From Oscillospiraceae bacterium (lineage in GTDB: Bacteria; Bacillota; Clostridia; Oscillospirales; CAG-272): a stretch of 64,000 nt of DNA. Position numbers and translations under genes: made by a program. The notes below the pieces were generated by a model. The model was not told the origin of the DNA. It did no database searches and was given only the letters and a program-made list of their open reading frames with translations. The stretch is from positions 9,918 to 73,917 of the forward strand of contig SVUK01000014.1 of assembly GCA_015063325.1 (NCBI GenBank), written 5' to 3'. Shown here one piece after another: positions 6,094-64,000 of the stretch (positions are counted from its first letter, which is position 1; each line of letters starts with the position of its first letter).

Positions 6094-7767
6094 TTAAAAC
6101 AGCCCAACAATCTTTCCGTCGTCGGTGACGTCGATGCGTTCGGCGGCAGGAGATTTTGGCAGACCGGGCATCGTCATGATATCGCCGGTCAGGGCAACGA
6201 GGAAGCCTGCGCCTGCGCTGATTTTAACGTTTCGCACGGTGACGGTAAAGTTTTCCGGTGCGCCGAGCTTTTGCGGATCGTCGGAAAAGCTATACTGCGT
6301 TTTGGCAACGCAAACGGGCAGTTTTCCAAAACCGAGCGCGGTGAGTTCTTCCATCTGTTTTTTTGCCGCAGGCAGAATGGTCACGCCGGCGCCGCCGTAA
6401 ACCTTGGTGACAATGGCGTGCAGTTTTTCCTCAATGGTGGTGTCTTCCTCGTAGCTGAAGCGGAAATGATTTTCCGCGTCGCACAGACGGACGACCTCCT
6501 CGGCGAGCTCGGTTCCGCCTTTTCCGCCGTCCGCCCAAACGGTGGAGAGCTTGACGTTCACGCCCAGCGCGCGGCACTTTTGAATGACGAGCTCAATTTC
6601 CCTGTCGGTGTCGGTTGGAAAACGGTTAACGGCGACCACGCAGGGAAGCCCATAGGTGTTTTTGATATTGGAAACATGGCGCAAGAGATTTGGAAGTCCT
6701 TTTTCCAGCGCGACAAGATTCTCGGTTCCCAAATCGGTTTTAGCAAGACCGCCGTGCATTTTCAGCGCGCGAACGGTAGCAACGATCACCACCGCGTCGG
6801 GACGAAGACCTGCCATGCGACATTTGATATCCAAAAACTTTTCGGCGCCCAGGTCGGCTCCGAATCCCGCCTCGGTGACGGCGTAGTCGCCCAGTTTCAT
6901 CGCCATGCGCGTGGCGATCACCGAGTTACAGCCGTGGGCGATATTGGCAAACGGACCACCGTGCACGAACGCAGGGGTGCCCTCCAGCGTTTGGACGAGG
7001 TTGGGGTTGAGCGCGTCCTTGAGGAGCGCCGCCATCGCGCCGACGGCGTTCAGGTCACCGGCGGTCACCGGCTTGCCGGCATAGGTATAGCCGACCACGA
7101 TCCGCGAAAGCCGCGCTTTGAGATCGGAAATCGACGACGAAAGGCAGAACACCGCCATAATTTCGGAAGCAACGGTAATATCGAATCCGTCCTCGCGCGG
7201 CGTGCCGTTGGCTTTTCCGCCCAAACCGTCCACCAAGAAGCGGAGCTGACGATCGTTCATATCCACACAGCGTTTCCAGGTAATGCGACGGGGATCAATT
7301 CCGAGCGCATTGCCCTGCTGAATGTGGTTATCCAACATAGCGGCAAGCAGGTTATTTGCCGCGCCGATAGCATGAAAATCTCCGGTAAAATGCAGGTTGA
7401 TGTCCTCCATAGGAACCACCTGCGCGTATCCGCCGCCTGCGGCACCGCCCTTCACGCCGAAAACGGGACCCAAAGACGGCTCGCGGAGCGCCACGACCGA
7501 CCGCTTGCCAATGCGGCGCAATCCGTCGGCAAGACCGATGGTGGTGGTCGTTTTCCCCTCGCCTGCCGGCGTCGGCGTAATGGCAGTAACAAGAATTAAC
7601 TTGCCGTTTTTGCGGTTGGATGAGTCGATCAGAGCGCGGTTGACCTTTGCTTTATATTTGCCGTAGGATTCCAGAAAATCGTCGGGGATTTCCACCTTCG
7701 CGGCAATTTCGGAAATCGGACGGAGCTTGCAAGCCTGTGCAATTTCAATATCGGTTAAGTATGCCAT
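6094..7767 (-). CDS. fhs: Formate--tetrahydrofolate ligase
   Basis: 557 aa. The N-terminus [11 protein letters not shown], the P-loop TPAGEGKTT and full-length similarity to FTHFS are recognised by eye. Confidence 0.95.
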
Positions 7768-60066: not shown

Positions 60067-60095
60067 TTGACAAATGAAGGGAATTGTGATATAAT
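60067..60095 (+). promoter_or_regulatory. Promoter of tRNA-Lys
   Basis: TTGACA at 60067-60072, a 17-nt spacer containing TG, and TATAAT at 60090-60095. Confidence 0.7.
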
Positions 60096-60117: not shown

Positions 60118-60193
60118 GACCCATTAGCTCAGTAGGTAGAGCACATGACTTTTAATCATGGTGTCCGGAGTTCGACTCTCCGATGGGTCACCA
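60118..60193 (+). tRNA. tRNA-Lys (anticodon UUU), CCA encoded
   Basis: GACCCAT-TA-GCTC-AGTAGGTA-GAGC-A-CATGA-CTTTTAA-TCATG-GTGTC-CGGAG-TTCGACT-CTCCG-ATGGGTC-A-CCA folds as a cloverleaf with a 7-bp acceptor stem and a TTCGA T-loop. Confidence 0.9.
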
Positions 60194-61749
60194 ATCTTTA
60201 ACAAATCCGAACACTCCTGTTCGGGTTTGTTTTTTTGTGCTTCAAATTCCTTCGCAACGCCTGATTTCTCAATGTCTTCAAGCGAAATCTCCTCGCTCCC
60301 GTCCTTGTAATTGCAGGTGACGACAGCATAGCCGTCGTAGAGGAATACCTTGTGCAAAAATCCGTCGATGAGCGCCCGTCTTCCTTGTGGGGTATCGAAG
60401 TTGAGACCGCGGTATTTCCTCAGTCCGTATAGGATTTGCTCTTCTGTCAGAACCGGACTTTTGAGCTCTGCTTCGGACAGTTCCAGCGTCAGGCGATCCT
60501 GCTCTTGTTCGAGTTTTTCCAGTCGGCTTTTCGTCGTTTTCAGAATGATTCCGCTTTCAATGGCAACAAGAATCTGCTCGATCTTTTCTTCCACGTCGGA
60601 AAGCTGTTGCTTCAATGCTGGAATGATCCGGTCTTCCTGTAATTGCAGTTCATACAACTCTTTTGAAGGCCGCTTCATTTGCCTGTCATTCATCACCTTT
60701 TCGATGAGTGCTTTGACAATGGCGTTCTCAATCAGATCTTTCCCGATTGCCTTCTTGTCGCATTTGCGCCCGTGCTTCGCCCTGGCGCATTTGTAATAGT
60801 GATAGACCTTCCCGGTTTTGCTCGCTCCGCTCTCTCCGATCATCATGGCGCCGCATTTGCCGCAAAACAGTTTGGTTGTCAGCAGATATTCCTCCTCTGC
60901 CTTGTGCGCGGCAGGGGCTTTTTTGTTAATATCCAATCGCTTTTGCACTCTGTCAAACAGCTCCTTTTCAATGATTTGCGGAATCGCGCCTTCCACGATG
61001 TGCCCATTGAAACGATATTCGCCGAGATATTTGCGATTGACCAGCATATGCCGGAGCGAATTGTAAGTCAGCGGCACTTCCTTCGGCTTCGACCGTCCGC
61101 GCTTTCCTTTGATCGCAATTCCGACGCCGCATGCGTTCATATCACTCAGGATTGTTTTCATCGGCTCGCCGTCGGCAAAACGCTGAAAGATCTCCTTGAC
61201 AAAGGGCGCTTTCTTCTCGTCGAGTTGCAGATGCTGTTCCTCGTCAACGTAGTAACCGATCGGCGTAACTGAACCGTTGCTCATGCATTTTTTCGCATTA
61301 TCTTCCATTCCACGATTGACCTTTTCGGCAAGTTCTACCGAGTAGTATTCGGCGTACCCTTCCAGAAGCGATTCCAACAAAATTCCGTCCGATCCTTCCG
61401 AGATCGTCTCTTTTGCCGAAATCACCTTGACGCCGTTTTTCTTCAAAAGACCTTTGTAATGAGCGGAATCGTAACGGTTCCGCGCAAAGCGGTCGAGTTT
61501 CCAGACGATGATCAGATTGAAAACGCCTTTTGCGCTGTCGTTGATCATCTTCAGGAACGCGGGGCGATTGTCGGTTTTGGCGGATAATGCACGATCTATG
61601 TAAGTGCCGATGATGGTGATATCGTGAAATTCGGCATATTCCGAACACTCGCGAATTTGCCCTTCGATCGACTCTTCCCGCTGGTTGTCCGAACTGTATC
61701 TGGCGTAGATAACTGCTTTCAGTTGCTTCTTTTCTTCTGTCTTTCCCAT
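60124..61749 (-). CDS. Large serine recombinase (resolvase/invertase N-domain, recombinase domain, zinc ribbon, coiled coil)
   Basis: ATG at 61749 follows AAGGAGAA. AVIYARYSSDNQ carries the catalytic Ser. DRFARN, CGKCG...YYKC (zinc ribbon) and a long coiled coil are present. The first in-frame stop is at 60124, inside the tRNA-Lys gene. Confidence 0.9.
   Translation of the reverse strand: MGKTEEKKQLKAVIYARYSSDNQREESIEGQIRECSEYAEFHDITIIGTYIDRALSAKTDNRPAFLKMINDSAKGVFNLIIVWKLDRFARNRYDSAHYKGLLKKNGVKVISAKETISEGSDGILLESLLEGYAEYYSVELAEKVNRGMEDNAKKCMSNGSVTPIGYYVDEEQHLQLDEKKAPFVKEIFQRFADGEPMKTILSDMNACGVGIAIKGKRGRSKPKEVPLTYNSLRHMLVNRKYLGEYRFNGHIVEGAIPQIIEKELFDRVQKRLDINKKAPAAHKAEEEYLLTTKLFCGKCGAMMIGESGASKTGKVYHYYKCARAKHGRKCDKKAIGKDLIENAIVKALIEKVMNDRQMKRPSKELYELQLQEDRIIPALKQQLSDVEEKIEQILVAIESGIILKTTKSRLEKLEQEQDRLTLELSEAELKSPVLTEEQILYGLRKYRGLNFDTPQGRRALIDGFLHKVFLYDGYAVVTCNYKDGSEEISLEDIEKSGVAKEFEAQKNKPEQECSDLLKIGDPSESRTPDTMIKSHVLYLLS
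60207..60236 (+). terminator. Terminator of tRNA-Lys
   Basis: CCGAACA-CTCC-TGTTCGG followed by GTTTGTTTTTTT. Confidence 0.75.
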
Positions 61750-61835
61750 TTGTTCTCCTTTTTTCAGAAATGCCGTTTTTTCGGTTGGGGAAAACGGCAA
61801 AACCCGATCCGCCTGCGGCGGTTGCCTCAATGCGC

Positions 61836-62015
61836 TCATTGAGGTTTCTTTTTATGTTCTTTGTTATTTGATTGCGATCTCTGCCATTCTTCAAAATCTT
61901 GCCGAATTTCTTCGCGCTCAAACATTGCTTGAATGGTTGGCAGAATGGCTCGTGCTAAAGATTGGATTTCAAAATCCGGTATTTCGTCTGGTTTTTGCTT
62001 TGGTTTTCTCGGCAT
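61836..62015 (-). CDS. Possible small ORF (59 aa, below the ORF-track cutoff)
   Basis: MPRKPKQKPDEIPDFEIQSLARAILPTIQAMFEREEIRQDFEEWQRSQSNNKEHKKKPQ. The RBS-like AAGGAGAG is rather far (about 18 nt) from the ATG. Confidence 0.3.
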   Translation of the reverse strand: MPRKPKQKPDEIPDFEIQSLARAILPTIQAMFEREEIRQDFEEWQRSQSNNKEHKKKPQ

Positions 62016-62098: not shown

Positions 62099-62395
62099 TC
62101 AGGTCTGATCCTCTTTCTTTTTCTTGAACGCTTCGAGTTCGTCGTAGAAGAAATCATCATACTTGTCCATAATCTTTGCCAACGACAGATCCTTCTGTGC
62201 GGCTTCATCCAGCAGGGCTTCATACCCGGCTTTGATGAGCTGGACTTTGGTATAACCGCTTTTTTTGAGGAACTCGTTGATCTCTTCTCCGAGCGGTCGC
62301 TCGATACTCGTTCCCCAGATCATACACTTCGCTTTTCGTTCTTCCTTGTGTCTATCCTCATATCTCTTGTCCTTCGACACTTTTTTCTCCGGCAT
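62099..62395 (-). CDS. Small basic/acidic protein, possible relaxosome accessory or DNA-binding protein
   Basis: ORF trimmed to the ATG at 62395 after GAAGGAGGA (MPEKKVSKDKRYEDRHKEERKAK...). It lies between the relaxase and the recombinase. I recognise no motif. Confidence 0.55.
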   Translation of the reverse strand: MPEKKVSKDKRYEDRHKEERKAKCMIWGTSIERPLGEEINEFLKKSGYTKVQLIKAGYEALLDEAAQKDLSLAKIMDKYDDFFYDELEAFKKKKEDQT

Positions 62396-62420
62396 TGTTA
62401 AGTCCTCCTTCGGTACAATA

Positions 62421-62471
62421 GTCGTATATATACGACACCTGTATTTTACCATGATCAAGGCGATTTGTCAA
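62421..62471 (-). promoter_or_regulatory. Promoter with an overlapping 16-bp palindrome inside the element
   Basis: On the minus strand: TTGACA (62471-62466), a 17-nt spacer, and TAAAAT. The perfect palindrome GTCGTATATATACGAC (62421-62436) lies at the predicted transcript start. Confidence 0.55.
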
Positions 62472-62602: not shown

Positions 62603-64000
62603 TTATTTGCTCCAACTATATTTGGCGCGTCGGATTGCCTCTTGACGGATCCGTTCTTCTTCCGCTTGCTTTTCCTTTGCCTCTTCCTGCTTCCTTTCAT
62701 ATTCAATCTCTTTCTCAATTTCTTGTAAGCGGTTGTGGCAGGTGGAAATGTGCGGCGTGAAGAGTTCTCCGAGAGATGCAAAGAATCCTTCATTCAAACG
62801 TTGGATCTTCCGCGCGGAGATCGTCAGATTCCGTTTTAAGGCTTTGTCGTTGACCTTGTAGGGACGATATTTCGGCTTGTATTGCTCGTCTTGAATCTTC
62901 CGAACCTGCCGGAGGACGATGTTTCCAAGTCTCCGTTTGTAATCCCATTCGATGGCTTCGATGGTGTAAAGACGTTTCATCCCATCACCAAGCTCGGTGT
63001 ATCCTTCCATGTTCTCAACGATATGTAATTCTTTGTTTACTCGCTCCCGATACCATGCTCCCATTTTGTCTTGCAGACGAATCTTCTTTTGCCGAAGTTC
63101 TTTCTGGAAGGCTTGATCTGCATCCAAGGCTTCGGGATTGGAAGAGAGTAACCATCGAGCGGCGTAATCAATATCGCTCCTGTATGGCGCCATCTCTTTG
63201 CTTGCATACCAAAGCGGCTTGTCCCGTGGCAGTTTGTCGGCAAGGTCTTTGAGCATACGGCGAGCGATGTCATTCATCACGGCTGTCGAATAGGCAGAGC
63301 TCTTCCTTAATAGAGCGTCATGTACCGCCAATCTCTTCTCCTCAAGATCGTCATTCAGAGTAAAAGCGTTTAATCGCTCGGTCATCTTTTCGATTGCCTC
63401 GAAGGAGATCTTGCCCTTCTTCCGATAGAGAAATCCTTTCGCGCGTTTGTTCTTGATTTTGGGTTCCTTCTCGAAGAACAGGTAGTGAATGTGCAGGTGC
63501 TCGGGTCGATCGAGATGGAGCGCGCAGAGAAGATCCATATTGTCCGGATTAAAACCGGCATCTCGGAAGAATTGATTAAAAGTTTTCTTGACGAGATCAA
63601 TGCACTTTTCAGGTGTGTCAATGAGTTTGGAGTCCTCCTCGTTGAAAGAGATAAACCCGTGCCAAAGATTCTTTTCTCCTGTCCGTGCGCGCTTCTTGAT
63701 TTCCTTGACCTGTTCCTTTGAGAGTAGCCCTTCTTGATTGAAAACGCCGGTGCTCTTTTGCAGGTATTGGAGCATGGTAAACCTTTCGGCTTCCTTGCCG
63801 TAGACCTTGCCTTCGGTTGTCATATACTTATAGAGATTGTTCTCGCCTGAGAGATCGAAGAAGGCGCGGTTCTTTCTGTGGGTTTCAATTTCTTTTTGCG
63901 TCGCGTTCTTCGGCAGTTTGTAGGGCGTGTAGGCAATATCAAAGATGACGGGTGTGCTTTGTTTTTCGATCTGTTTTCTCCTTTCTTTTGTGGACGAAAA
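62603..64000 (-). CDS. MOBV/MobL-like relaxase, 5' end not resolved (frame open to the window edge)
   Basis: ALHLDRPEHLHIHYLF matches the H-x-D-x(3,4)-H-x-H relaxase histidine motif. The frame upstream of the track's first Met (63823) stays open to 64000 (FSSTKERRKQIEKQSTPVIFDIAYTPYKLPKNATQKEIETHRKNRAFFDLSGENNLYKY). No ATG/GTG/TTG follows the AAAGGAGAAAA at 63979-63989. Confidence 0.75.
   Translation of the reverse strand, partial: FSSTKERRKQIEKQSTPVIFDIAYTPYKLPKNATQKEIETHRKNRAFFDLSGENNLYKYMTTEGKVYGKEAERFTMLQYLQKSTGVFNQEGLLSKEQVKEIKKRARTGEKNLWHGFISFNEEDSKLIDTPEKCIDLVKKTFNQFFRDAGFNPDNMDLLCALHLDRPEHLHIHYLFFEKEPKIKNKRAKGFLYRKKGKISFEAIEKMTERLNAFTLNDDLEEKRLAVHDALLRKSSAYSTAVMNDIARRMLKDLADKLPRDKPLWYASKEMAPYRSDIDYAARWLLSSNPEALDADQAFQKELRQKKIRLQDKMGAWYRERVNKELHIVENMEGYTELGDGMKRLYTIEAIEWDYKRRLGNIVLRQVRKIQDEQYKPKYRPYKVNDKALKRNLTISARKIQRLNEGFFASLGELFTPHISTCHNRLQEIEKEIEYERKQEEAKEKQAEEERIRQEAIRRAKYSWSK

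Follow-up and report, generated by a model that had tools for sequence, protein, structure and literature searches.

We analyzed a 64,000-nucleotide stretch of DNA (hereafter the window) from contig SVUK01000014.1 of an Oscillospiraceae bacterium, in which the gene for a large serine recombinase (LSR) lacks a stop codon of its own and reads into the gene for tRNA-Lys(UUU). The gene belongs to an island that is an integrative mobilizable element (IME), encoding the LSR and a MobL relaxase and lying in the tRNA gene's 3′ end. Most probably, the element was inserted there site-specifically, with the anatomy and the attachment (att) scheme described below. Within a large and little-described recombinase family, the locus is an ordinary member. 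The features at the tRNA end of the element are as follows.

60067–60095, plus strand: host sigma-70 promoter of tRNA-Lys, TTGACA-17-TATAAT, with 12 of 12 matches and a TG extension.
60118–60193, plus strand: tRNA-Lys(UUU), detected by ARAGORN; orthologous flavodoxin–tRNA-Lys loci occur in the genus.
60124–61749, minus strand: LSR, 541 aa as integrated, with the Pfam families Resolvase, Recombinase, and Zn_ribbon_recom.
60124–60189, minus strand: putative host-supplied end of the LSR, antisense to the tRNA, translated as ...D-PSESRTPDTMIKSHVLYLLS and a stop; tails differ by tRNA among homologues.
60170–60175, plus strand: T-loop GTTCGA, the proposed outer (zinc-ribbon-domain) half-site motif of attB.
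60188–60189: candidate crossover dinucleotide TC (GA on the recombinase strand), at tRNA positions 71–72 (T71-C72).
60188–60194: copy 1 (attL) of the direct repeat TCACCAA; copy 2 is at G000:C10:2398–2404.
60190–60212, plus strand: P′ arm of the element, 23 nt, consisting of ACCA, ATCTTTAAC, and AAATCCGAAC; the 9-nt spacing between CCA and AAATCCGAAC is the same at tRNA-Lys, tRNA-Met, and tRNA-Arg.
60200–60239, plus strand: element-borne hairpin and T-run, which serves as the tRNA's replacement terminator and carries the half-site motif.

The open frame of the LSR spans 60124–61839 on the minus strand, and its likely start, M31 at 61749, yields a 541-aa product in agreement with the database protein P0001. 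No stop codon occurs in this frame ahead of the tRNA; the frame crosses the hairpin and terminates within tRNA-Lys(UUU) at a TAA (60124–60126), the C terminus reading ...EFEAQKNKPEQECSDLLKIGDPSESRTPDTMIKSHVLYLLS before the stop. The segment KPEQECSD is the hairpin read antisense, and the final 23 codon positions (60124–60193) overlie the tRNA. The sequence details given in the original prediction, which was made from the DNA letters alone, were all correct. The protein has the features of an LSR: a resolvase catalytic domain (PF00239, 6.5e-28) with conserved Ser and Arg residues (R17, S19, S20, D21, Q23, and R24 were invariant among 39 homologues), matches to both PF07508 (Recombinase) and PF13408 (zinc ribbon), and long helices at residues 337–448 of the AlphaFold model, that is, a helical (coiled-coil) insert. 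Its nearest NCBIfam models were CcrB and XisF, both under the cut-off, and its best PDB match was the catalytic domain of TP901-1. The last folded element of the AlphaFold model stopped at about residue 495, and the predicted local distance difference test score was below 50 at residues 494–541; the tail is thus predicted to be disordered.

We compared the tails of the best 120 homologue clusters (58–80% identity) among at least 8000 matches, at the protein level only. These homologues, 487–614 aa in length, align through ...KNKPEQECSDLxxxG and diverge beyond it. When antisense-tRNA translations were made in the reading frame set by the CCA end, 94 of the 120 clusters had tails at least 60% identical to such translations, indicating that the read-through tail did not arise by chance. 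Near-identical recombinases have tails from different tRNAs, showing that the tRNA part is target DNA and that the portion through the Gly belongs to the element. The codons of the hairpin stem (KPE and SDL) are conserved while those of the loop are variable, and in most homologues a GAN codon (D or E) follows the conserved Gly. A native tail shared by the homologues, which would have spoken against the original prediction, was not seen; the tails follow different tRNAs. As judged from these proteins, tail overlap is the rule in a large family and not an accident of one copy.

The hairpin (60200–60231) has a 14-bp stem followed by a T-run and has a folding energy of −17.8 kcal/mol (z −6.0). 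Other occupied sites have the same spacer and hairpin, namely those at tRNA-Lys (G012, G023, and a rumen metagenome-assembled genome), tRNA-Met (G023:C59), and tRNA-Arg (L055), where CCA is followed by exactly 9 nt, then by AAATCCGAAC, a loop, GTTCGG(G/A)TTTG, and a T-run, and then by the antisense recombinase gene. L055, with a recombinase of 62% identity, shares an identical 27-nt stretch of the hairpin region. Genus relatives without the element keep the flavodoxin–tRNA-Lys order, and the flavodoxin gene upstream indicates that these loci are orthologous; unrelated terminators lie directly 3′ of CCA at five of the seven genus tRNA-Lys loci without a type-A element. The terminator at one genus locus, L005, holds a near-variant of the hairpin motif. 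Since the spacer and hairpin accompany the recombinase and most of these genus loci have unrelated terminators, we consider the hairpin element-borne and the boundary to lie at the tRNA 3′ end. By this comparison of sites, the hairpin is element DNA that displaces the native terminator and bears the recombinase half-site AAATCCGAAC, and the sequence ATCTTTAACAAATCCGAAC... after CCA at tRNA-Lys is read as element and not host DNA. Positions 1–72 of tRNA-Lys would then be host DNA and the final ACCA (60190–60193) would be re-supplied by the element, which puts the probable boundary within the last six tRNA bases, TCACCA (60188–60193).

The geometry of the attachment sites was reconstructed with the help of a sister clade of about 50% identity. 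A search of genome contigs gave two close loci, each of them truncated at a contig end, and a single-protein search of metagenome contigs for related loci found none; an alignment-based search of metagenome contigs gave 80 loci, nearly all of them from the sister clade. The G023, G012, and L017 contigs stop short of the distal ends of their elements. In the sister clade, the recombinase 3′ end is not beside a tRNA. At the 11 loci with sufficient flank, a same-strand tRNA lies 4–12 kb upstream, with the element hairpin directly after CCA; the distance between CCA and the end of CCGAAC is 18 nt. The sister-clade recombinase ends in ...GSDL....AP, encoded by GTTCGGATTTG-N-xxACCA (for example, GTTCGGATTTG-N-GCACCA), after which an unrelated native terminator follows. 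The final 6–8 nt of the tRNA are duplicated at both ends, and the repeat lies under the last codons of the recombinase. The sister clade inserts in the opposite orientation. A scan of 86 loci showed 72 in which the distance between the CCA end and GTTCGGAT was exactly 29 nt, and at loci with a tRNA that has no encoded CCA, divergence starts just after the discriminator base.

Reconstruction gives an attP of 47 bp for either clade (28 + 19 in the present one, 29 + 18 in the sister clade); it would be an inverted repeat with the outer motifs GTTCGR and YCGAAC, lying inside the recombinase gene in its last codons. Only with a core at tRNA positions 71–72 do both clades share one layout, namely a recombinase-proximal arm of 23 nt, 2 nt of core, and a distal arm of 22 nt. 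Because this is the sole position with identical arms in both orientation types, we placed the crossover there; TC at 71–72 is also the leftmost part of every 6–8-nt direct repeat. Given this core, the clades would differ only in core orientation, and GA on the recombinase strand would explain the D or E after the conserved Gly. The T-loop GTTCGA precedes the core by 18 nt and the matching GTTCGR of the attP arms precedes it by 22–23 nt, placing the outer motif 4–5 bp nearer the centre in attB than in attP; the LI integrase displays the same inward shift between attB and attP (Rutherford et al., PMC3783163). In a divergent member, L052, both arms are changed together (GTTTACC and GGCAAAC) with unchanged spacing, supporting the notion that the motifs are protein-binding half-sites.

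The far end of the island lies outside the window. Contig C11, which contains the window, ends 6.5 kb past it. Over 133 nt, G000:C11:80325–80457 is 100% identical to G000:C10:1–133, and an open frame of 1225 codons on the minus strand, without a Pfam family, is unbroken over the join; we therefore treated C11 and C10 as adjacent. The segment C10:2375–2440 reads GTTCGACCTATTATTTTTCGTT-TC-ACCA-AAAAGAGCCGTATCGC-TTTT-GCGATACGGCTCTTTTT and appears to comprise a P arm, the last six bases of tRNA-Lys, and a terminator like those at the empty genus sites; the core genes SpoIIE and RecG come next after this distal terminator. The resulting island is 12,611 bp long with TCACCAA at both ends. Beyond 64 kb, where the original prediction had proposed to look for a repeat of 60194–60260, lie a similar hairpin 7.6 kb on and TCACCAA (C10:2398–2404) with a native-type terminator. 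With an LSR, a MobL relaxase, and a short flanking repeat, TCACCAA, the island has the hallmarks of an IME; VirB4 or a coupling protein was not found among the open reading frames (ORFs) of the island. A boundary model with a CCAA core, the second hairpin (hairpin B) as native terminator, and a predicted free end of ...GDR and a stop was dropped on the basis of the C11–C10 adjacency and the TCACCA end.

The island is composite: a 7.65-kb autonomous element, which carries the recombinase and MobL, is joined to a 4.95-kb partner that has no recombinase. The 7.65-kb part encodes the recombinase, two small ORFs, the MobL relaxase, a DUF6291 protein, and an AAA_14 ATPase; those lying in the window besides the recombinase are listed here.

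61836–62015, minus strand: 59-aa ORF, no family.
62099–62458, minus strand: 119-aa charged ORF, no family; candidate relaxase accessory or directionality factor.
62603–64000, minus strand: MobL/MobA-VirD2-type relaxase (Pfam MobL, 1e-14); the full gene encodes 482 aa and extends to window-equivalent 64051.

A 197-bp module (L001 8565–8761), 99% identical to C10:2201–2397, closes the 7.65-kb part. The 4.95-kb half starts with hairpin B (P′-type) and ends with the second 197-bp P-arm module; it codes for two proteins of unknown function, one of 1225 aa and the other, with a zinc ribbon, of 336 aa, and for no recombinase. The inner junction between the two parts is a 47-bp attP-like sequence, GTTCGACCTATTATTTTTCGTT-TT-ATCGATCCCCAACAAATCCGAAC (L001 8739–8785; window-equivalent 67821–67867). 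In its att-type ends, lack of a recombinase, and tandem position, the 4.95-kb half may be akin to a cis-mobilizable element, although its inner core is non-canonical (TT + ATCG). By analogy, the two-part island resembles accretion with a cis-mobilizable partner, as in the Dehalococcoides ssrA islands (PMC3146451). A tandem was also observed in L055 (~230–340; human-gut contig OZAB01000151), where the tRNA-Arg element meets, at its far end, another element's hairpin arm; it reads P arm + TC + GCCA + AAGAGGTATAATCCGAAT..., with a canonical inner core, and the displaced fragment contains a discriminator G. The relaxase/DUF6291 region of the present element recurs at G000:C12:31096–34099 (87% identity over 2.8 kb) and, as a shorter match, at C14:5022–5501; at E <= 1e-100, neither C12 nor C14 gave a recombinase match.

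In the scheme that we propose, the recombinase would pair attP with the tRNA gene, using the T-loop GTTCGA as the outer half-site motif of attB, and would cut at tRNA positions 71–72 (TC). At the left end, the recombinase-proximal arm (ACCA, the spacer, the AAATCCGAAC hairpin, and the T-run) would be joined to the tRNA body, so that the tRNA 3′ end would be restored and would gain a new terminator, and the recombinase frame would continue antisense into the tRNA and stop there. At the far end, the last 23 codons of the gene, its stop, and its terminator would be left in the 197-bp module beside the displaced TCACCA and the native terminator. The empty site would thus have run from tRNA-Lys ...GGGTCACCA straight into the terminator at C10:2404–2440. 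The element may still be mobile.

Several points weigh against this insertion scheme. Neither a same-species empty site nor a circular joint was seen in Logan contigs from four runs, which were uninformative on excision; the loose contig ends at the tRNA in these runs stem from tRNA-Lys genes of other organisms. In four genus relatives, neither SpoIIE nor RecG lay within 7 kb of tRNA-Lys, and since this synteny is not kept, it is the repeat, the type of terminator, and the genes present that define the distal boundary. The inner junction has TT + ATCG where TC + ACCA (TC-ACCAATCTTTAAC...) would be expected, with six unexplained substitutions in the central 11 nt, all transitions, between flanks that are 99% conserved. 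The crossover dinucleotide is deduced from site geometry, that is, from the 47-bp inverted-repeat att sites, with a putative 2-bp core, reconstructed in both orientation types. Finally, about 15–20 of the 120 homologue tails are not tRNA-like; these might represent free or tandem forms. As a separate observation, such non-tRNA tails are conserved in subgroups (..FEVKGELFSSSKVTV.. in P0042, P0057, P0062, and P0099; ..MWRYF.. in P0011, P0056, P0094, and P0101), P0094 representing 489 member sequences, and have GAAC-type codons 7–9 residues past the Gly, which fits reading into the P arm.

The 197-bp module bears on the function of the overlap. On the recombinase strand, it holds 23 codons (ETKNNRSNLIWAIKGFLAFGVDI), a stop, a −24 kcal/mol hairpin, and a U-run; the loop of this hairpin is longer than 8 nt, and it was missed by a simple terminator scan but detected by folding. 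On the circle, the module codons would follow ...SDLLKIG. Integration would then swap 23 codons for 21 (DPSESRTPDTMIKSHVLYLLS) and take away the terminator of the LSR gene. The original prediction that the excised form has a different C terminus agrees with the 23 other codons that the module offers.

The read-through could nevertheless be without a role, the stop merely being absent from the frame, the tail being tolerated as a disordered extension, and control lying elsewhere. This explanation comes close to an even chance without quite reaching it, and it concerns function only, the anatomy being compatible with it. The tail is predicted to be disordered, tails vary freely by target, and McMurdie et al. 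(PMC3146451) offer the same trivial explanation for dsiB. Against it, both orientation types show the arrangement, as does a paralogue of 39% identity at tRNA-Ser; DsiB has it too (PMC3146451), and integration also parts the gene from its own terminator.

We tentatively suggest, as a possibility that is less probable than its absence, that the att site within the gene acts as a sensor of state and that the T-loop serves as an attB half-site, with the core at 71–72 choosing the tRNA and the orientation. The gene on the free circle would own its 23-codon tail, stop, and strong terminator, and all three would be lost on insertion. The integrated transcript would end at the internal bidirectional hairpin without a stop, yielding a non-stop message subject to tagging by transfer-messenger RNA (tmRNA); alternatively, it would collide head-on with transcription of the strongly transcribed tRNA gene. 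Either way, recombinase output would fall after integration without a dedicated repressor. In the same proposal, the 2-bp core at 71–72 would be the main determinant of tRNA choice and orientation.

It is improbable that the crossover took place in the hairpin, with the palindromic terminator as attB and hairpins A (60200–60231) and B (L001 8773–8812), 7.65 kb apart, as attL and attR. Hairpins A and B are 85% identical over 40 nt, the sites of serine recombinases are inverted repeats, and a similar hairpin follows tRNA-Lys in L006 (G009:C13), where CCA + 18 nt ending in AAATCCGAAC is followed by a 20-nt loop and GTTCGGATTTG. However, a complete P arm at attP spacing precedes hairpin B, making the junction attP-like and not attR-like, and a canonical TCACCA with a native-type terminator lies 4.95 kb beyond. 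Moreover, the hairpin bears no relation to the native terminators that follow the repeat in the sister clade. The L006 site, seemingly empty, has the 18-nt spacing that is the attL signature of the sister clade and is probably occupied by a sister-clade (type-B) element.

Still less credible is the partition put forward in the original prediction, in which the tRNA, its promoter, and the terminator hairpin are all host DNA, the element starts to the right of about 60236, and the target gives the stop and the last 35–40 codons. The hairpin does resemble an ordinary tRNA terminator, and the similar hairpin 7.6 kb downstream would suit this partition as well. Yet the hairpin and its 9-nt spacer go with the recombinase to tRNA-Met and tRNA-Arg and are absent from five of the seven genus tRNA-Lys sites without the element, and the KNKPE...SDL codons are conserved family-wide while the tRNA part is variable. 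The tRNA therefore stays with the host, as its flavodoxin synteny in relatives shows, and so does the stop; the terminator moves to the element, the boundary to 60188–60193 on the evidence of occupied and empty sites and of the distal TCACCA, and the number of target-supplied codons falls to about 21. That the tRNA-Lys gene is cargo of the element, as its direct abutment on the recombinase gene and its own strong promoter might suggest, can be dismissed, since at least seven genus species without a type-A element preserve the flavodoxin–tRNA-Lys arrangement and near-identical elements sit at other tRNAs.

The site-specific insertion that we favor has a precedent in DsiB of Dehalococcoides, whose gene overlaps attL at ssrA in tandem islands (McMurdie et al. 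2011, PMC3146451). Both are CcrB-like LSRs encoded at the attL end and facing outward, with a gene that overlaps attL and finds its stop only outside the island; in both, a tRNA-like gene is targeted in its 3′ part and restored, and both occur in tandem islands, some without an integration module. Compared by description, DsiB differs in its target (tmRNA, versus several true tRNAs here), its crossover (T-loop, versus the putative acceptor-stem position 71–72), and its repeat (20 bp, versus 6–8 nt); moreover, the present element has no DsiA, the small ORFs beside the LSR matching no Pfam family, and it has a MobL relaxase and a Clostridia gut host. The Mx8 integrase IntP/IntX likewise has attP in its coding sequence and acquires a new 3′ end (Tojo 1996 and Magrini 1999, via PMC6070905), but it is a tyrosine recombinase with unrelated chemistry and site architecture.

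Phage LSRs (LI/A118, phiC31, Bxb1, and TP901-1) share the domains and, for the sites as reconstructed here, the inverted repeats of ~47–50 bp with a central dinucleotide and the outer motif nearer the centre in attB than in attP (PMC3783163). Their attP, however, lies outside the gene, their targets are protein-coding or intergenic, and both of their attB arms are recognizable, whereas the B′ arm here (the native terminator) is not conserved. TnpX and TndX of the mobilizable and conjugative transposons Tn4451 and Tn5397 are, like the present enzyme, single LSRs at one end of Clostridia mobile elements (PMC5704250). They use a 2-bp GA core, as would the present LSR to judge from the GAN codon after the Gly, but, compared by description, they are of low specificity and not tRNA-directed. 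We know of no description of an attP within the gene for Tn4451 or Tn5397. As in the tRNA-gene islands of tyrosine integrases (Islander/TIGER; PMC4383910), the target is split and then restored, and a displaced fragment marks the far end; the enzyme family is different, and the restored fragment is 4 nt (ACCA) plus a terminator instead of the typical 15–60 nt. Reviews of genomic islands and IMEs treat tRNA genes as targets of tyrosine integrases (PMC4383910, PMC5704250, and PMC5357655): Islander 2014 states that targeting of tRNA genes by serine integrases was not known (PMC4383910), and reviews of Firmicutes IMEs describe the serine-integrase targets as all intragenic, with the gene disrupted (PMC5704250 and PMC5357655). 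The arrangement is therefore unusual, as the original prediction held, when set against these reviews, but not in itself, the trait being widespread and DsiB a precedent.

Three further family elements occur in the same genome, at a tRNA-Glu(CUC) site, at a tRNA-Ser(GCU) site, and on C10. L052 (G000:C18:148883–161470) has the sister-clade layout, with tRNA-Glu(CUC) at one end and the recombinase at the far end, reading into a TCACCA repeat and a native terminator. In L053 (G000:C18:174060–175670), the 39%-identical paralogue crosses a hairpin and meets a TGA, derived from the T-loop, in antisense tRNA-Ser(GCU); it appears to be the same design at far greater sequence distance. L054 (G000:C10:7414–8961) encodes a fourth recombinase of 55% identity, whose tail crosses an attP-like junction (7483–7530; GTTCAACC...GGTGCGCCA...ATATCCGAAC); no tRNA was found on that contig, and L054 may be another tandem.

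The locus and its relatives represent a large family of serine recombinases (at least 8000 matches) at tRNA 3′ ends in gut and rumen Clostridia. In this family, the tRNA is restored by four bases and a dual-purpose terminator, and insertion is possible in either orientation. Serine integrases are major tools of genome engineering. If the proposed role of the T-loop is true, docking on the T-loop combined with a 2-bp target core would provide natural landing sites in many bacteria. The attP within the gene may serve as a simple model for how an element senses its free versus integrated state.

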